From the IMG/VR virus record IMGVR_UViG_638341086_000004: a stretch of DNA of 11,922 nucleotides; one strand, given 5' to 3'. Below the pieces are notes generated by a model that was given only the letters and a program-made list of their open reading frames with translations, ran no database searches and had not been told where the DNA came from. Below, piece after piece: positions 1 through 10,904 of the stretch; positions within the stretch are counted from its first letter, which is position 1; every line of letters begins with the position of its first letter. Source of the stretch: a virus. Taxonomy: Duplodnaviria > Heunggongvirae > Uroviricota > Caudoviricetes. The position numbers were made by a program, and so were the translations under genes.

Positions 1-243
1 TTCCCGTAACAACTGACGCCAGACTTTACGCACACCGTATACCTTGTGATTTTCATCGTATACGCGCTGTATCTCTTTCTTCAGCCAGTCATCGCGCTGC
101 GCACGGGCACTGCGTTTATCCGGATGATGTCGCTGTTGCTGACAGTGGTAATACGTTGACGGGGCAATATGCAGTTCACTGCATACCGGTCCGACCCCGC
201 ACTGCTCACGCAGCTTATCCAGCAGTGGCATTATTTTTTCCAG
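1..243 (-). CDS. IS3-family transposase OrfB, N-terminal part only (partial; the DDE catalytic region lies beyond the window)
   Basis: Hand translation of the minus strand, open through the window edge: [81 protein letters not shown]. It is in the -1 frame relative to OrfA and overlaps the A6 slippery run. Confidence 0.8.
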
Positions 244-557
244 AGGCGGTCGAACTCCGCCTTCGCAAAATAAGCGGAAGCCTGGCGAAGGATATCGTTA
301 CTGCGGCGCAGTTCACGATTTTCACGCTCCAGCTCTTTCAGACGCTGACGTTCAGCGGTGGTGAGCCCTCCATCACCGCCCCCGGTATCCCGCTCATGCT
401 GGCGAACCCAGACACGCAGAGTCTCCGGCGTACAGCCAATCTTTGGAGCAATGGAACAAATTGTCGCCCATTGTGAGTCATATTCGCCCTGACTTTCCAG
501 AACCATACGGACTGCCCGTTGACGGACTTCAGGGGAAAAACGAGTATTTTTAGTCAT
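231..557 (-). CDS. IS3-family transposase OrfA (HTH DNA-binding subunit)
   Basis: 108-aa [22 protein letters not shown]...[36 protein letters not shown]: N-terminal HTH plus a leucine-zipper-like coiled coil typical of IS3 OrfA. An A6 run (T-run at 234-239 on the plus strand) lies at its 3' end where the -1 frameshift into OrfB is expected. Confidence 0.9.
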
Positions 558-864
558 CCTGTTTACCTCTTTCTCAGGAAGTTTAGTCTCCAGGATTCCC
601 GGGGCGGTTCACCCCGCCATACTTACCGCCGCGCCATTTCGCGGGTTGCCACAACCGGAAGCGCACGGTCGACGAAAATTTAACGACAGGCTATCTATGA
701 ACCAGCTACCTCGCCGTGCGCTTTCGCGTTATGGTCTGACTTTTCAGGGAAATATCCTTTCAGTAAACTGTCAGTGCCGGATGCTCACCCGTGTCCGGCG
801 CACGCACTCCACCTCACCCGTGGAGAACTCCTTAATTACTAACCTTAGCTTTGTTGATTAGCTA

Positions 865-1584: not shown

Positions 1585-1621
1585 TACCCATAGGTATTTA
1601 AAAAGTAAATACCCATGGGTA
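1585..1621. promoter_or_regulatory. Left operator region (OL-like): two palindromic repressor-binding candidates, TACCCATAGGTA (1585-1596) and the perfect palindrome TACCCATGGGTA (1610-1621)
   Basis: Two 12-bp dyads with centres 25 bp apart in the non-coding gap between the repressor 3' end and the leftward operon. The same half-site (TACCCA) recurs in the repressor/cro intergenic region. Confidence 0.5.
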
Positions 1622-1663: not shown

Positions 1664-2083
1664 CTATGATGCGTTTTGTGCTTTCTTTTTACGGATTTCT
1701 TCGTAGATCATATTGTAATACTGTTTTTTCTCTTCAAGAGTTTTTAATAAGTTATCCGCTTCACTTTCTGGCAGTTCGTCTAAGAGATCTAAAAAAATAC
1801 GTTGTCGTGGCGTTAGAACCCTTGTTTCATAACTGGAGGCTGTGTTCGTTGATGATGAAACGATACCATCCATCCATCCCCGGGGTAACCCAAAGGACTC
1901 TTCGATAATCTCCACCATATCATCAGCGATCCGTTTTTTTCCCTTTTTCCCCTCTGGGTACAACATTCTTGATACATAAGAAGGCTCGCGCCCGATCTTT
2001 CTGGCCACGTTAACCGCTTTACCATCGCATTTCTCATCACGAATTTTGATGAGTTGCTGTCGTCTAAATTCATATTTATCCAT
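1664..2083 (-). CDS. Prophage immunity repressor, short HTH-only type (RacR/DicA-like size class; no S24 peptidase domain)
   Basis: 139-aa ORF divergent from the cro-like gene. An HTH-like segment (GKAVNVARKIGREPSYVSRMLYPEG) and the length are incompatible with a LexA-type cleavage domain. No SD upstream of the ATG, suggesting a leaderless mRNA. Confidence 0.75.
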   Translation of the reverse strand: MDKYEFRRQQLIKIRDEKCDGKAVNVARKIGREPSYVSRMLYPEGKKGKKRIADDMVEIIEESFGLPRGWMDGIVSSSTNTASSYETRVLTPRQRIFLDLLDELPESEADNLLKTLEEKKQYYNMIYEEIRKKKAQNAS

Positions 2084-2874: not shown

Positions 2875-2945
2875 CTGACAATAGCCATATCGAATCGCTT
2901 CCGGCAACTCGTGAGTAAAAAGATTCGGTATCAGAAGAGGTGAGT

Positions 2946-4016
2946 ATGGCTAACGCCTGGCTCAGATTATGGCATGACATGCCAAATGACCCTAAGTGGC
3001 GAACAATTGCCAGGGTGTCAGGGCAGCCAATTGCAACAGTGATGGCAGTGTATATCCACCTCCTGGTGAGCGCGTCACGAAATGTCACGCGAGGTCACAT
3101 TGATGTCACGACAGAAGATTTGGCAAGTGCGCTCGACGTGACAGAAGAGGTAATTGATTCAATTTTGCAGACGATGCAGGGGCGGGTACTTGATGGTGAT
3201 TTAATCACTGGATGGGAAAAACGCCAGGTGCTGAAAGAGGACAACGGCAATATTTCGCAAACCGCAAAATCTCCTGCAGAGCGCAAGAGGGCGCAGCGAG
3301 AGAGGGAAAGAAAGCGGGAACAAAATGGCGATTGTCACGGCGCGTCACGAAATGTCACGCACATGTCACGACGAGTCACGACAGATAAAGATACAGATAA
3401 AGATACAGATAAAGATACAGATAAAGATACAGATCAAGAAGATCAAAACACTATGGTCCATGGCGTAAAAAACGCCACGAACCAGGCAGGGGATGTTCAG
3501 ACCGTCAATCCTGGTCAGCCAGCAGGCACGACACCGGAAGCCGATTCGGGCGCTGTGCAGCAGGTGATGACCGCAAGGCCGGAGCAATCACACCAACTGC
3601 AGCAGCCCGAAGCCGATTCCGCCATTCAGCGGGAAGCCGATCGGGTAGTCCCGGAAAACACCGGTCAGTCTGTGGGACGAGTGGATTATCCGGATGTGTT
3701 CGAACAGGTCTGGCGGGAGTACCCGTTGCGTGCTGGGGCAAACCCGAAGAAATCCGCTTTCAGTGCCTGGAAGGCCAGATTACGCGAGGGGGTGCCACCA
3801 GAGGCCATGCTGGATGGTGTGAGGCGTTACGCGAGATACCTGGCGGCGACCGGGAAAGCGGGAACGGAATTTGTTCAGCGAGCGACGACGTTTTTTGGGC
3901 CGGACCGGAATTTTGAAAACCCCTGGTTGCTCCCGGTAAGCGGCACGAACAACCAGCGTTGCGTGAATCACATTTCTGAACCGGACACTGAAATACCGCC
4001 GGGATTCAGGGGGTGA
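2946..4016 (+). CDS. Phage replication initiator (O-like role) with a DnaT-like C-terminal domain
   Basis: ORF starting at the ATG at 2946 (GAGG RBS 5 nt upstream; the ORF track starts at GTG 2940). The C-terminus ...VNHISEPDTEIPPGFRG resembles the C-terminus of E. coli primosomal protein DnaT as I recall it. The middle of the gene carries iteron-like repeats and an AT-rich tandem repeat. It is immediately followed by a DnaC-like gene. Confidence 0.8.
   Translation: MANAWLRLWHDMPNDPKWRTIARVSGQPIATVMAVYIHLLVSASRNVTRGHIDVTTEDLASALDVTEEVIDSILQTMQGRVLDGDLITGWEKRQVLKEDNGNISQTAKSPAERKRAQRERERKREQNGDCHGASRNVTHMSRRVTTDKDTDKDTDKDTDKDTDQEDQNTMVHGVKNATNQAGDVQTVNPGQPAGTTPEADSGAVQQVMTARPEQSHQLQQPEADSAIQREADRVVPENTGQSVGRVDYPDVFEQVWREYPLRAGANPKKSAFSAWKARLREGVPPEAMLDGVRRYARYLAATGKAGTEFVQRATTFFGPDRNFENPWLLPVSGTNNQRCVNHISEPDTEIPPGFRG
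3074..3110. repeat. Iteron-like cluster 1: four GTCAC(G/A) motifs phased ~10-11 bp apart
   Basis: GTCACG at 3074, 3084 and 3105, GTCACA at 3094. The 20-mer CGCGTCACGAAATGTCACGC (3071-3090) recurs exactly at 3341-3360. Confidence 0.55.
3334..3380. repeat. Iteron-like cluster 2: five GTCACG motifs phased at helical-turn spacing, directly upstream of an AT-rich tandem repeat (candidate phage origin)
   Basis: GTCACG at 3334, 3344, 3354, 3365 and 3375. Contains the second copy of the 20-mer CGCGTCACGAAATGTCACGC. Lies inside the initiator gene, as lambda-type origins lie inside O. Confidence 0.6.
3384..3431. repeat. Perfect 12-bp tandem repeat (GATAAAGATACA x4, then a degenerate partial unit), AT-rich; encodes a (DKDT)n linker in the initiator
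   Basis: Read directly from the sequence; units at 3384, 3396, 3408 and 3420. Immediately 3' of iteron cluster 2. Confidence 0.85.
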
Positions 4017-5562: not shown

Positions 5563-5577
5563 TTGCCGAAGGCGCTT

Positions 5578-6003
5578 ATGGCAAAAGTATTTACACAAGA
5601 AGAGCGAGAAAAAATTAAAGGGCAGGTTGTTGAGCTAGTACGCCGGAGTGGGCGCGAGACGTTACGGCAACTGGAAGCCAAGACAGGTGCGACAAGATAT
5701 CTGATGAGCGTTCTTGCCAGAGAGCTGGTTGCCAGTGGTGATGTATATCACTCTGGCTATGGGTTGTTCCCGTCAGAACAGGCGCGTAAGGACTGGCAAA
5801 ACGCCCGCAAAAAACTCTCGAGGGCAAAGGTGAAGAAACCTGTTGTGGTTGATCCGGGCCTTATCTGGACATTACCCGACGGAGAAATACACCGCTACGA
5901 CAGGCGTATGAACATAATCTGTCGCGAGTGCCGGAAGAGCGAAGCTATGCAGCGTGTACTGGCATTTTATCAAGGAAATGTTAGATATTTTAGACGTTAC
6001 TAG
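5578..6003 (+). CDS. Hypothetical prophage protein (141 aa from the ATG at 5578), possible winged-helix N-terminus
   Basis: ORF with a GAAGG RBS ~7 nt upstream of the ATG at 5578 (the ORF-track start at 5563 is TTG). No recognisable catalytic motifs. Confidence 0.6.
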   Translation: MAKVFTQEEREKIKGQVVELVRRSGRETLRQLEAKTGATRYLMSVLARELVASGDVYHSGYGLFPSEQARKDWQNARKKLSRAKVKKPVVVDPGLIWTLPDGEIHRYDRRMNIICRECRKSEAMQRVLAFYQGNVRYFRRY

Positions 6004-6156
6004 ATTAAAGAGCATTAGTTCAGATGTGAATTGACATTTTCATGGCGCAGGGTAGAGCCAGCGTGGTTGTCCGCTTTGCGTCAAAACCAGATATTACCAG
6101 ATTTAGACATATATTCCCGATAGCCCTGCTCTGATGCTACACTCTGTGCTATTTTC

Positions 6157-6843
6157 ATGACCCCAATAAAAATATTTATGACTATTGCTGATTTCAAACG
6201 GCCTAAATTGGAGCTTCCAAACGGGGCAAACAAACTACTACTGCACTCTTGCTGTGCTCCATGTTCCGGTGAAGTGATGGAGGCGCTTCAGGCCTCGGGA
6301 ATCGACTACACCATCTTTTTCTACAACCCGAACATTCATCCTCAGAAAGAGTATTTAATTCGTAAGGATGAAAATATTCGCTTTGCTGAACAACACGGCG
6401 TGCCGTTTATCGATGCTGATTACGACACCGACAACTGGTTTGAACGTGCCAAAGGAATGGAATGGGAGCCTGAGAGGGGGATCCGTTGTACCATGTGTTT
6501 TGACATGCGTTTTGAGCGGACAGCGTTGTACGCTGCTGAAAATGGTTTCAGTGTGATCAGTAGTTCACTGGGCATTTCACGCTGGAAAAATATGCAGCAG
6601 GTTAACGAGTGTGGGCGGCGAGCTGTTGCGCATTATCCGGGTATGGTGTACTGGGATTATAACTGGCGCAAGCAGGGCGGCTCGTCCCGTATGATTGAAA
6701 TCAGCAAGCGCGAAAAATTCTATCAGCAGGAATATTGTGGCTGTGTGTATTCTCTGCGCGATACCAATCTACACCGCAAATCTCAGGGACGCCCTCTTAT
6801 CAAAATTGGCCAACTCCACTACGGAAAAGAAGAGAAGGAGTGA
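6157..6843 (+). CDS. QueH-like protein (DUF208/COG1636 family, putative epoxyqueuosine reductase-type Fe-S enzyme)
   Basis: 228-aa ORF with the [11 protein letters not shown] motif that I recall as the hallmark of DUF208/QueH, plus further conserved Cys (CTMCFD, EYCGCVY). No clear SD; an alternative ATG lies at 6178. Extended -10-like TGCTACACT at 6134-6142. Confidence 0.7.
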
Positions 6844-7021
6844 TTTTATGGATCACCTTTCTGATTGATTTCATATTGGCGAGGTGACGTGAGTTAAGTA
6901 GAATTGCTGCGGGTGCCTGAGGCTGTCTGCCTCAGGCATGAACACCAAAAGGCAGATAGAGAAAGCCCCAGTTAACATTACGCGTCCTGTAAGACGCTCA
7001 ACATTAATCTGAGGCATATGG

Positions 7022-8146
7022 ATGCGGATGAAAGAATTAAATAAATTCAGAGTGATAGACCTCTTTTGTGGGGCAGGTGGATTATCTTATGGTTTTCTTC
7101 ATGGAGAGATGTCTGACTACTTTGAAAGTATCCTTGCTATTGATAATAATGCTGCAGCTATAAATACCTACAATGCCAATTTTGGTTTGCATGGAGTTCA
7201 GGCAAATATTGAGGAGTGGGCATCCAGCAATACTGTTCCTGAGGCTGATGTGGTCATAGGTGGCCCCCCGTGTCAGGGATTCAGTTTATTGAATAAGAAT
7301 CGTTATGGTGATCACCGAAGAGCATTGTGGGAGCCTTATATGGATGTCATTGAGCGTTCAAGGGCTTGTATGTTCGTCATGGAAAATGTCCCCGGATTGC
7401 TGATAAGCGATGAGTTTGCGGACATTACGTTTAGAGCGAAATCCATGGGCTTTATTCTGCTTAATCCAATGGTGTTGAATACTGCTGACTATGGAGTACC
7501 TCAGACAAGAAAACGAACGATAGCAATCGGTATCAAACGAGAACTCTTCGATGTGCATAGTATTCCGGCGTTCCCGCCAGCACCAACGCATCGTTCCCCT
7601 GATAAGGATGTCGCTTTGCCTGAATGGGTCTGTACGCGTGATGCAATTGGTGACTTACCTGCTCCTGTTGGAACTGATATTCGTAATGAACTTCCTCCGC
7701 TGAACTTACATTTTGGGCGTAATCCCACACCTGTTTCTCTGGAGCGATATAAAGCGGTTCCACCAGGAGGTAACCGTTTCGATTTACAGAAAAAAAGACC
7801 TGATATAACCCCGGCGTGCTGGCTAAAAAAGAAATCTGGAGGGACCGATTTGTTTGGACGTCTGTGGTGGGACAAACCTTCAGTAACGATTCGTACTGAG
7901 TTTTTCAAACCGGAGAAAGGGCGATATTTACATCCGGAAGAGGATCGGCCAATAACTCATCGTGAGGCAGCGAGATTAATGTCTTTTCCTGATAATTTCA
8001 TTTTTACCGGTTCAAAAACTGAGATTGCAAAGCAGATCGGGAATGCTGTTCCACCGCTATTTGCGGCAAAAATCGCACAATATGTGTATGGAGTTTTGCA
8101 GGGACGGTATAAGAATAACATCAGTAAGAATAGTCAAGCAGCCTGA
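7022..8146 (+). CDS. DNA (cytosine-5)-methyltransferase (Type II R-M modification subunit)
   Basis: 374-aa ORF with canonical C5-MTase motifs in order: I (DLFCGAGG), IV (GGPPCQGFS), VI (ENVPGL), VIII (QTRKR), IX (RPITHREAARLMSFPDNFIF), X (GNAVPP). RBS GAGG 7 nt upstream. Confidence 0.92.
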   Translation: MRMKELNKFRVIDLFCGAGGLSYGFLHGEMSDYFESILAIDNNAAAINTYNANFGLHGVQANIEEWASSNTVPEADVVIGGPPCQGFSLLNKNRYGDHRRALWEPYMDVIERSRACMFVMENVPGLLISDEFADITFRAKSMGFILLNPMVLNTADYGVPQTRKRTIAIGIKRELFDVHSIPAFPPAPTHRSPDKDVALPEWVCTRDAIGDLPAPVGTDIRNELPPLNLHFGRNPTPVSLERYKAVPPGGNRFDLQKKRPDITPACWLKKKSGGTDLFGRLWWDKPSVTIRTEFFKPEKGRYLHPEEDRPITHREAARLMSFPDNFIFTGSKTEIAKQIGNAVPPLFAAKIAQYVYGVLQGRYKNNISKNSQAA

Positions 8147-8160
8147 AGGAAATCCAGAAA

Positions 8161-9038
8161 TGAATGGAGATTTGGTTGACAGCATAGTTGGTTTTGCTGA
8201 AGCCAGAAAGGAGTTTCATGCCCAATTGTTACTGAATACGCTCACAATTAATACTGCCGGAGTTGTTAGTAACGCAGATAGCAGTAACAAAAACAGTAAA
8301 GCTATAGCAAGAGAAATTGCTCGCTTCTTGCAGGCTGAAACGATTGGTGAACGTGTTGCAGGGCAAACATCTGGTAATCAGTTTGAGAGTATCTGCGCAG
8401 AGTTTATAGAAAAAACCTTTTTTAAACTCAGCCACTTACGCCCTGGAAAATGGAATGTACATCAGGTTTCTGGTAGAAACAGATTAGAGATAGCTAAATA
8501 TGAACAATATGCCCATCTTATAGCATTGGATAGTGCTGCAAAAAGTAATCCTCAGCTAGCTGCTGCACTGGGGAGTGATTATACGATTTCACCAGATATT
8601 ATTGTTGAAAGAGAACCTGAATGTGATCAAGTTATCAACAGTCCTGAATTACTGGTGGATGATTCTGTTACCCGCATGTCAGCTCTCAGGAGTTCGAATG
8701 GTGGGAAACCAATATTACACGCAAGTATTTCCTGCAAATGGACAATAAGAAGCGACCGGGCCCAGAATGCTCGTTCTGAGGCATTAAATCTTATTCGCAA
8801 CCGTAAGGGAAATCTCCCTCATGTAATGGTTGTTACTGCTGAGCCTACTCCAAGTCGTCTGGCGTCTATTGCTCTTGGTACTGGTGATATAGATTGCGTG
8901 TATCATTTTGCGCTTTATGAACTTATATCAGCAGTTGAAATACTGGGGCTCAGCGATGCAGCTGACATGCTTTCCGTGATGGTTAATGGTAAAAGATTAA
9001 AGGATATTTCTGATCTTCCCTTGGATCTTGCAGTCTGA
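8161..9038 (+). CDS. Putative Type II restriction endonuclease, NgoMIV/Cfr10I/Bse634I-like (PD...SxK...E fold variant)
   Basis: 292-aa ORF starting 15 nt after the MTase stop (RBS GAAGGA). Candidate catalytic residues E76, D146 (SPDIIV), S191-C192-K193 and E207, with K-to-E spacing of 14; this matches the pattern I recall for NgoMIV (E70/D140/K187/E201), offset by 6 residues. The ORF-track start at 8025 overlaps the MTase and is rejected. Confidence 0.7.
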
Positions 9039-9110
9039 CATCTCTACGTAAATAGAGTCTGTCATATTTTAACTGTGATGGCACGTCATTGACTTCAGTA
9101 CATTTTTACT

Positions 9111-9137
9111 AACCCGCTTCGCGGGTTTTGTTTTTTC
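9111..9137 (+). terminator. Rho-independent terminator closing the cargo/R-M block
   Basis: AACCCGC-TTC-GCGGGTT hairpin (7-bp stem) followed by TTGTTTTTTCC. Confidence 0.7.
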
Positions 9138-9208
9138 CTGGCATTCTGGTTTACAATCCACACGCCAGCCTGAACAACTGGCACCTGCTGCGCCAGCAGA
9201 GACAACCG

Positions 9209-9481
9209 ATGGCGCACAATACCAAACACCACAATTCTGATGCCGACCCTGCCAGCAGACACGGACGGCGCTCTCACGCATTCAAATATGACTGGTACCA
9301 GCATGACCAATGCACTGAAGAACAGGCCGAGTGGCTGATTCAGAATTACCGCAGACGTGGATACCAGTTTCAGAAAGGCCTCAGTCCTGACTTCCGACGC
9401 TGGATAATTTCCGTCAGGCTCCCTTATTCCGAACGCCCGCCGCGTCCGTCCCGCACATATCAGCAACGCATCTGGAGGTAA
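9209..9481 (+). CDS. Hypothetical small basic protein (90 aa); position upstream of the DUF968 gene is reminiscent of rem in Qin-type prophages (positional only)
   Basis: ORF whose stop (TAA 9479-9481) sits directly against the GTG start of the next gene (9483), suggesting translational coupling. Weak RBS; a candidate promoter (-10 TACAAT at 9152-9157) lies upstream. Confidence 0.4.
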   Translation: MAHNTKHHNSDADPASRHGRRSHAFKYDWYQHDQCTEEQAEWLIQNYRRRGYQFQKGLSPDFRRWIISVRLPYSERPPRPSRTYQQRIWR

Positions 9482-9482
9482 C

Positions 9483-10532
9483 GTGCGGGTATTACTTCGA
9501 CCTGTTCTGGTACCGGAACTCAGTCTGGTTATCGTTAAGCCAGGCCGTGAATCAATGTCAGTATTCCATAACGGCAGAATATTGGTGGAACCGGAACCCA
9601 AAAACATGCGCAGTCTTCCGTCCGGCGTCGTTGCAGCCGTTAGCCAGCCGTTGGCTGAGGATAAAACATTACTACCATTTTTCAGCGATGAGCGGGTAAT
9701 TCGTGCAGCAGGTGGTGCAGGTGCACTGTCTGACTGGTTATTACGTCACGTGAAATCCTGCCAGTGGCCACACGGCGATTATCATCACAGCGAAACAGTC
9801 ATTCACCGTTACGGTACCGGCGCGATGGTGTTGTGCTGGCACTGTGACAACCAGCTGCGCGACCAGACATCAGAATCACTCGATCAACTTGCTCAGCAGA
9901 ATCTGGTTGCCTGGATGATTGACGTCATCCGTCACGCAATAAGCGGCACGCAGGAGAGGGAGTTATCGCTGGCCGAATTATCCTGGTGGGCGGCCTGCAA
10001 TCAGGTGGTGGATGCACTACCTGAGGCAGTAGCGCGTCGTTCTCTGGGATTACCGGCGGAAAAAATCCGCTCCGTATACCGTGAAAGCGACATCATACCG
10101 GGAGAACAGACCGCCACCAGCATACTGAAGCAGCGCACAAAAAATATTGCGCTACCGCCTCACACCCACCAGCAACAGAACCCACCACAGGAAAAGACGG
10201 TGGTCAGCATTGCCGTTGATCCGGAGTCTCCGGAATCCTTCATGAAACGACCTAAACGTCGCCGCTGGGTAAATGAGAAATACACACGCTGGGTAAAGAC
10301 ACAGCCGTGTGCGTGTTGTGGTAAGCCAGCGGACGATCCTCATCATCTGATTGGTCATGGTCAGGGTGGAATGGGAACAAAATCCCACGATATTTTCACG
10401 CTACCGCTGTGTCGGGAGCATCACAACGAGCTTCATGCGGATCCGCTGGCGTTCGAAGAAAAGCATGGTTCCCAGGTTGATTTAATTTTTCGTTTTCTTG
10501 ATCACGCCTTTGCGACTGGCGTGCTCGGGTAA
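9483..10532 (+). CDS. DUF968/YdfU-like protein with a C-terminal Cys/His-rich HNH-like motif
   Basis: 349-aa ORF (GTG start, GGAGG RBS 4 nt upstream). The C-terminus PCACCGKPADDPHHLIGHGQGG...LPLCREHHNELH looks like a zinc-binding HNH-type nuclease signature. Length equals what I recall for E. coli YdfU. Confidence 0.7.
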   Translation: MRVLLRPVLVPELSLVIVKPGRESMSVFHNGRILVEPEPKNMRSLPSGVVAAVSQPLAEDKTLLPFFSDERVIRAAGGAGALSDWLLRHVKSCQWPHGDYHHSETVIHRYGTGAMVLCWHCDNQLRDQTSESLDQLAQQNLVAWMIDVIRHAISGTQERELSLAELSWWAACNQVVDALPEAVARRSLGLPAEKIRSVYRESDIIPGEQTATSILKQRTKNIALPPHTHQQQNPPQEKTVVSIAVDPESPESFMKRPKRRRWVNEKYTRWVKTQPCACCGKPADDPHHLIGHGQGGMGTKSHDIFTLPLCREHHNELHADPLAFEEKHGSQVDLIFRFLDHAFATGVLG

Positions 10533-10544
10533 AAGAGGTGACTG

Positions 10545-10904
10545 ATGCTCATAGAGTTTGTTTTGCCTTACCCGCCGACGGTGAACACCTACTGGCGACG
10601 TCGTGGCAGCACATATTTTGTATCAAAAGCCGGTGAGCGTTATCGCCGGGCTGTGGCGCTTATTGTTCGCCAGCAGCGGCTGAAATTAAGCCTGTCCGGA
10701 AGGCTGGCGATAAAGGTGATTGCAGAGCCACCGGATAAGCGTCGTCGCGACCTGGACAACATTCTGAAAGCACCGCTGGATGCGCTGACGCATGCGGGAG
10801 TGCTCATTGATGACGAGCAGTTTGATGAAATCAATATTGTACGTGGTCAGCCAGTATCTGGTGGACGGCTGGGTGTGAAGATTTACAAAATTGAGAGTGA
10901 GTGA
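10545..10904 (+). CDS. rusA: Crossover junction endodeoxyribonuclease RusA (Holliday junction resolvase)
   Basis: 119-aa ORF with an AAGAGGTGA RBS. Collinear match to recalled E. coli RusA (YPPTVNTYWRRRG..., DKRRRDLDNILKAPLDALT..., GVLIDDEQ...). Confidence 0.9.
   Translation: MLIEFVLPYPPTVNTYWRRRGSTYFVSKAGERYRRAVALIVRQQRLKLSLSGRLAIKVIAEPPDKRRRDLDNILKAPLDALTHAGVLIDDEQFDEINIVRGQPVSGGRLGVKIYKIESE

Follow-up and report, generated by a model that had tools for sequence, protein, structure and literature searches.

Results

The window, by which we mean the whole stretch of 11,922 nucleotides that was analysed, carries a pair of genes that we read, with a probability of roughly 0.88, as a two-gene type II restriction-modification (R-M) operon, methylase first and endonuclease second, forming accessory cargo of a lambdoid Escherichia coli prophage. 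The two genes are adjacent and co-oriented with a spacer of 13 nt, their pairing is kept across taxa, and both are under purifying selection. The pair lies within what was a hok/sok toxin locus (Table 1).

Table 1. Features of the R-M locus and of the hok-type locus that surrounds it; positions are those of the window.
Feature	Position	Strand	Basis and remarks
Sigma-70-like promoter of the resident hok-type locus	6876..6904	+	TTGGCG-17-TAGAAT; promoter scan
Remnant hok/sok 5′ leader, upstream of the methylase gene	6911..7015	+	Rfam RF01794 'sok'
Inserted R-M cassette	7016..9109	+	Sits in the hokD locus in place of its mok/hok/sok core and fbi element
C5-cytosine DNA methyltransferase gene	7022..8146	+	374 aa; 'long' lineage; PF00145, TIGR00675, motifs
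Methylase/endonuclease spacer	8147..8159	+	13 nt, AGGAAATCCAGAA; holds the endonuclease ribosome-binding site
NgoMIV-family (CCGG-family, PD...K...E) type II endonuclease gene	8160..9038	+	292 aa; predicted site G^CCGGC
Intrinsic terminator	9111..9137	+	7-bp G+C-rich hairpin 9111-9127 plus T-run; terminator scan

Gene organization of the locus

Both open reading frames were listed on the plus strand of the window. The gap between them, put at 15 bp by the sequence-only reading, measures 13 nt and contains a Shine-Dalgarno-like AAGGA ahead of the endonuclease gene. For the methylase, a GAGG at 7011-7014 lies 7 nt 5′ of the ATG at 7022; the start chosen in RefSeq is the ATG at 7028, two codons later, which gives a protein of 372 aa. 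The pair was said to sit in an AT-richer block, and the base composition agrees with this, G+C being 0.40-0.47 over 7000-9000 versus 0.49-0.55 in most of the flanking replication and nin regions.

The endonuclease

The endonuclease matched the Pfam profile NgoMIV_restric (PF09015) from position 1 to 275 of its 275 positions (E 6e-127; 423 bits with a curated cutoff of 23.2 bits), the PADLOC model REase_II (E 8e-126) and, in a PDB sequence search, the sequence of the NgoMIV crystal structure, 1FIU/4ABT (E 1e-118). NCBIfam has no model for the endonuclease. The profile and structure comparisons, which had been proposed as a check of the sequence-only reading, therefore place the 292-aa protein in the NgoMIV family along its full length. 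The 'NgoMIV/Cfr10I-type' of that reading can be narrowed to NgoMIV, because no other CCGG-family enzyme appeared among the PDB sequence search matches, even at E values up to 10, so that the endonuclease belongs specifically to the NgoMIV branch. With Cfr10I and Bse634I (R^CCGGY), SgrAI, AgeI and Kpn2I it has in common the permuted PD...K...E site and the R-(D/E)R motif (PMC6344858).

Over 282 residues the protein is 66% identical to NgoMIV of Neisseria gonorrhoeae (chromosome L157). The full gonococcal locus is contained in this N. gonorrhoeae chromosome, which is filed as a 'plasmid' in PLSDB; the N. gonorrhoeae contigs in the protein-linked collection end inside the endonuclease gene. The two systems share the order of methylase and endonuclease, the tight spacing and the conserved catalytic and R-S-D-R residues. 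They differ in that the E. coli endonuclease has about six extra N-terminal residues and in that the gonococcal locus is chromosomal and adjoins purK, whereas the pair described here is located in a prophage.

The putative active-site residues E76, D146, S191, K193 and E207 were located exactly where the sequence-only reading had put them, and each is identical to its aligned counterpart in NgoMIV (E70, D140, S185, K187 and E201), with a constant offset of 6. NgoMIV cleaves 5′-G^CCGGC; its metal-binding carboxylates are E70, D140 and E201, a conserved lysine has also been described, and the CCGG core is read by the R-(D/E)R motif (PMC6344858). In the E. coli protein this motif is R197-S-D199-R200, and the stretch KWTIRSDRAQNARSE is identical to NgoMIV. 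The alignment also shows conservation at the positions that match NgoMIV D34 and R227 (NAD, PSR), two residues that presumably read the outer G:C pair and would give GCCGGC over RCCGGY. With its active site and CCGG-reading motif intact, the enzyme most likely cuts G^CCGGC, and by analogy with NgoMIV it would probably act as a tetramer on two sites (type IIF behaviour). Eco56I, we take it, is an isoschizomer from E. coli.

The methylase and its partners

The methylase matched PF00145 (E 4e-54; 184.6 bits, cutoff 22) and TIGR00675 (154.5 bits, cutoff 100.65). Its C5-methyltransferase motifs were located, namely I (FCGAGG, residue 15), IV (PPCQ, 83), VI (ENV, 121), VIII (QTRKR, 161) and X (GNAVPP, 340). 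Its identity to the gonococcal M.NgoMIV, a protein of 312 aa, is 22%, with a likeness confined to the shared catalytic motifs, and its identity to the methylase that partners NgoMIV in N. brasiliensis is 25%. On this comparison the methylase is judged not to be an M.NgoMIV orthologue.

Closer relatives of the methylase are 62-82% identical to it. In Idiomarina, Salinicola, Edwardsiella tarda and a P2-like prophage of Yersinia kristensenii (L145), the gene that follows encodes a winged-helix plus HNH nuclease (wHTH-HNH) of 322-330 aa that is unrelated to NgoMIV; these nucleases are 61% conserved among themselves. In gene order such long C5-methylase plus wHTH-HNH systems resemble the pair in the window, and their methylases are 62-77% identical to ours including the target-recognition region; the difference lies in the nuclease. 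We found no characterization of systems of this type.

To describe the partners of the endonuclease family, we surveyed 146 loci fetched for their NgoMIV-family endonuclease gene. A C5-methylase of 312-318 aa lay directly upstream in 100 of them and a methylase of 371-376 aa, the type found in the window, in 33, the latter including five prophage contigs from hosts other than E. coli with 70-72% DNA identity. All of these 33 long-methylase and 100 short-methylase loci have the methylase gene followed by the adjacent endonuclease gene on one strand. Neither type was present in the other 13 loci; five of these run into a contig end, and two that were checked among the remaining eight have an N4/N6-type methylase upstream. 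At least three types of methylase, unrelated to one another, occur as partners of this single endonuclease family. The short methylase is the gonococcal one: the 312-aa methylase gene of N. gonorrhoeae ends directly before the endonuclease gene, and the protein is 71% identical between Neisseria and Yersinia. Short-methylase systems are also carried by phages and plasmids, for example in a P2-like prophage of Yersinia aldovae (L148) and on small plasmids of E. coli, Enterobacter and Acidovorax. They are comparable to the pair in the window in their moron-type position and have endonucleases 75-79% identical to ours, but their partner methylase measures 312-318 aa instead of belonging to the 372-aa type.

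Since the lineage of the methylase partners an unrelated HNH nuclease elsewhere, the pair is a natural hybrid, composed of the methylase of one system and the nuclease of another. The endonucleases found beside long methylases are 80-100% identical to that of the window and all others 78% or less, which suggests a single methylase/endonuclease swap in an enterobacterial ancestor.

What the two parental systems recognized bears on the site of the methylase. At somewhat less than even odds, we consider that the chimera joins two isospecific R-M systems, one of the long C5-methylase plus wHTH-HNH type and one of the NgoMIV type. Alternatively, the R-M system works and the methylase has a site that includes GCCGGC but is shorter or degenerate (for example CCGG, RCCGGY or GCCGG), which would reflect its origin in a different system with an HNH-type nuclease. 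The low identity to the canonical NgoMIV partners (22-25%) fits this proposal, as does the target-recognition region, which is 69-82% identical to that of the methylases paired with HNH nucleases, a conservation no lower than that of the catalytic core. We nevertheless regard a shorter site as unlikely: swaps of R-M genes survive most easily when both systems share their specificity, the hybrid persists in several enterobacterial genera with both genes conserved, and no sign of a broader site was found.

The hok/sok remnant

The match to the Rfam family RF01794 begins 7 nt downstream of the promoter-like site (61 bits with a gathering score of 59; E 7.6e-12), covers model positions 1-86 and is good up to 7013. 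In an alignment, hokD-carrying prophages shared both the -10 element and the start region with the window. By blastn, the QueH-hokD prophage of E. coli ST95-32 (L154) is homologous to the window up to 7015 and again from 9110; the interval that the cassette replaces measures 287 bp in this prophage and contains hokD. With the cassettes of other enterobacterial prophages, the alignment is limited to 7040-9038. Compared with the hokD loci of lambdoid prophages, the window has kept the promoter, ~105 nt at the 5′ end of the leader, and the terminator, whereas it lacks the mok and hok frames, the fbi element and the Sok region and has the R-M genes in their place. Since what is left of the former locus is a leader remnant and a terminator, with the hok frame replaced, it does not qualify as a hok/sok locus. 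A GCACCC element, which is taken to be the hok fold-back (fbi) element, lies just before the hokD terminator in the comparison prophages and is absent from the window.

A strong terminator at the end of the pair had been noted, and the hairpin and T-run are indeed present. They are, however, a property of the prophage hokD locus and not of the cassette, the same hairpin being located 3′ of hokD in L154 and in a second comparison prophage (L155). No other terminator-like site was found in 5900-9600.

Upstream of the methylase start the cassette has brought only 6-12 bp and therefore lacks a promoter of its own, and the GAGG serving the ATG at 7022 is on the hok side of the junction. As the cassette replaced the toxin core of hok/sok, use of the hok-type promoter and the hok terminator is probable. 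By position, we infer that the M-R operon is transcribed from the former, and transcription probably stops at the latter. The predicted fold of the leader base-pairs the methylase start region (z = -3.1), a hint that methylase expression could be low.

Selection and activity

Purifying selection acts on both genes: between E. coli alleles about 3% apart, dN/dS was 0.18 in the methylase gene and 0.06-0.07 in that of the endonuclease. These values bear on a different reading of the locus, in which the endonuclease is silent or inactive in lysogens, the methylase is effectively an orphan or epigenetic enzyme and no restriction-based defence results. Such an outcome could follow from the missing promoter and from a leader fold that would sequester the methylase start region, and the prophage that carries the pair in strain E110019 is degraded: it is a lambdoid prophage beside tRNA-Ser and mtfA whose integrase, terminase and portal genes are pseudogenes. 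(In the carrier prophage of O157:H7 strain 9000, the integrase, excisionase, terminase and portal genes look intact.) We consider silence of the endonuclease quite improbable, given the low dN/dS of its gene, the conservation of all its catalytic and recognition residues, its good ribosome-binding site and the finding that it is intact in all listed complete carrier genomes.

The prophage contains 11 GCCGGC sites, where 9.5-16 are expected. Because these sites are not avoided, the prophage would have to rely on methylation. Avoidance of GCCGGC was also considered as a sign of activity and was rejected for that purpose: the counts for the window (0 versus 2.4 expected) and for the prophage are not significant, and other G+C-only palindromes are likewise rare. 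Taken together, dN/dS and the GCCGGC-site counts argue for an active, self-protected system.

We rejected the possibility that the methylase and the endonuclease are non-cognate, since both genes are conserved together and an active endonuclease would kill a cell that had no protection. The stability of the hybrid would require the long methylase to protect GCCGGC; the target of this methylase is deduced solely from viable co-residence with the endonuclease in 60 complete genomes.

In the mechanism that we propose, transcription of the cassette would start at the hok-type promoter and stop at the hok terminator. The methylase would place 5-methylcytosine within GCCGGC, or within a shorter site containing it, and this methylation would shield the chromosome of the lysogen and the prophage's own 11 sites, while unmethylated DNA of incoming phages or plasmids would be cut by the endonuclease.

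The prophage cargo slot

The order of genes is replication genes, DUF1627, DUF977, QueH, methylase, endonuclease, a small ORF, DUF968, RusA and antiterminator. The placement between the replication genes and the nin/rusA region, as described by the sequence-only reading, is correct for the prophage, except that QueH (6157-6843) intervenes before the pair. With positions 5563-10904 as query, 4749 genomes were matched, only 56 of them at a query coverage of at least 80%; in the remaining matched genomes the stretch from DUF977 to DUF968 contains other cargo. This includes QueH with hokD, QueH with a Kiwa KwaB-like gene, the reverse transcriptase of retron Ec67, an alpha/beta hydrolase, a GIY-YIG nuclease and others. 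Between DUF977 and DUF968, lambdoid prophages thus have a hotspot whose cargo and defence genes vary. The assignment as a moron position is borne out, as the content of the slot varies among homologous prophages and its composition differs from that of the flanks. Related cassettes are found in other surroundings: a 97%-identical allele follows DUF977 without QueH and lies ahead of DUF1367 (L105), and a 72%-identical cassette in another enterobacterial prophage lies ahead of a LexA-like gene and DUF968 (L107).

The position within this slot suggests a further interpretation, namely that the prophage is the main beneficiary of the system, which would act as a selfish addiction module that kills cells after the prophage is lost and as a weapon against competing phages, and would be the direct successor of hok/sok. 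Post-segregational killing is a known capacity of type II R-M systems. The pair sits exactly at a former hok/sok post-segregational killing locus and keeps its control regions, and the same slot carries other defence cargo. These observations are, however, compatible with host defence as well, and as loss of the prophage is rare, the selective value of addiction is doubtful. We hold a role mainly for the prophage to be possible, with the balance against it. For the R-M operon as cargo of the prophage, roles in phage defence and in addiction are both plausible.

Distribution and earlier annotation

Of 5426 complete E. coli genomes, 60 have the 2116-bp pair, each as one chromosomal copy. It is at least 99% identical, with both genes intact, in 59 of these carriers and likewise in most draft copies. 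Carriers are mostly O157:H7 strains from cattle and humans; E110019 and one O39:NM strain belong to them too. Another 28 copies were found in IMG/VR prophage contigs. Among the isolated phage genomes of INPHARED there was no DNA match to the pair, and a protein search of this collection gave one distant match, to a gut phage contig that lacks annotation (56% identity). The NgoMIV endonuclease family as such is spread over hundreds of species, with at least 512 confirmed matches in a scan of species-representative genomes, and is also found on plasmids and prophages.

Whether the pair had been catalogued was left undecided by the sequence-only reading. It is not new, because RefSeq already carries the identical pair under the names 'DNA cytosine methyltransferase' and 'NgoMIV family type II restriction endonuclease', so that it is named in public annotation. 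No paper on the pair was found in the literature on NgoMIV with prophage, E. coli or Shiga toxin, on GCCGGC with O157 or m5C, and on Eco56I; in the m5C-mapping papers found, GCCGGC was reported only for Aeromonas hydrophila and for MAGs.

Discussion

Real as the pair is, it is an ordinary representative of a very well-known enzyme family and has already been annotated. Exchange of methylases and nucleases among R-M systems and turnover of cargo at prophage hotspots are established phenomena. The hybrid partnership and the replacement of the hok/sok core are therefore unsurprising and do not challenge current understanding. If the chimera indeed joins two isospecific systems, the HNH nucleases would represent restriction enzymes of a new structural class, specific for GCCGGC or for a CCGG core. 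On the same reading, the chimera would have appropriated from a hok/sok addiction locus its promoter, leader and terminator, one addiction module displacing another.

The cassette, placed precisely inside a hok/sok locus at a prophage hotspot, illustrates modular exchange in mobile defence cargo. For E. coli, the pair adds a predicted GCCGGC-specific restriction barrier and an m5C mark to about 1% of complete genomes, chiefly those of a cattle and human O157:H7 lineage, and in these carriers it may affect phage susceptibility, transformation efficiency and the interpretation of methylomes.

Partner genes of the two R-M enzyme families

The gene order is constant at four comparison loci (L141, L144, L145 and L146), where a long C5-methylase is followed by an HNH nuclease of 322-330 aa. 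These nucleases form a conserved family, with a winged-helix (HTH_39) match and a C-terminal HNH match, and presumably are restriction enzymes; except for the HNH motif, no solved relative was found. Upstream of some NgoMIV-family endonucleases (Schlesneria MAGs and a viral contig) we found an N4/N6-type methylase, not a C5 enzyme. N4/N6-type enzymes in place of the C5 methylase therefore represent a third partner class for NgoMIV-family endonucleases. Access to the true NgoMIV locus came through two Neisseria gonorrhoeae records in PLSDB (NZ_CP119142.1 and NZ_CP119140.1), which are filed as plasmids but, at 2.17 Mb each, are evidently chromosomes.

Two Yersinia P2-like prophages carry unlike R-M systems in one slot, which has the replication gene gpA on one side and the portal gene on the other (see table). 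In Y. kristensenii, this slot additionally holds a PvuRts1I-like/SRA protein and HicB.

Coordinates of features in the window and at comparison loci
Feature	Position	Strand	Remark
IS3-family transposase gene, with ALIL pseudoknot	window 1-560, chiefly 160-276	-	window start falls inside gene
Perfect 16-bp inverted repeat, TACCCATAGGTATTTA ... TAAATACCCATGGGTA	window 1585-1621		intergenic
Repressor-like gene	window 1664-2083	-	
Perfect fourfold DKDT repeat	window 3384-3431	+	within ORF 2940-4016
QueH (epoxyqueuosine reductase) gene	window 6157-6843	+	Pfam PF02677, E 1e-65
hok/sok type I toxin-antitoxin remnants	window 6911-7015 and 9111-9137	+	either side of R-M cassette
R-M region, Y. kristensenii prophage	L145 2472-6092		long methylase, HNH nuclease
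R-M region, Y. aldovae prophage	L148 3042-4864		canonical short methylase, NgoMIV-type nuclease
Winged-helix/HNH nuclease genes	L141 5105-6073; L144 5147-6130; L145 5100-6092; L146 5088-6068		
N4/N6-type methylase (PF01555) before NgoMIV-family endonuclease	L051 5087-5971; L136 6775-8010		
Second 'DNA-methyltransferase' gene, prophages with same R-M pair	L001 25016-26092; L156 19291-20349		outside window

Surroundings of the R-M cassette

In the window, the hok/sok locus has lost its toxin frame; its promoter and terminator survive, together with the first ~105 nt of the leader. The second gene annotated as 'DNA-methyltransferase' in the carrier prophages of E110019 and O157:H7 strain 9000 is placed downstream of the antiterminator region.

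Elsewhere in the window, the ALIL pseudoknot (programmed frameshift) of the IS3-family transposase gene was identified by Rfam (RF01497, 119 bits), and the DKDT repeat belongs to a 358-aa protein of the replication region. The inverted repeat, located near the repressor-like gene, is a possible operator or terminator; a miRNA match at this site was spurious.

The immediate upstream neighbour of the R-M cassette within the prophage is the QueH gene, which was found again at the same slot of many E. coli prophages, whether the R-M pair is present or absent. QueH is a tRNA-modification enzyme carried as phage cargo and merits attention.
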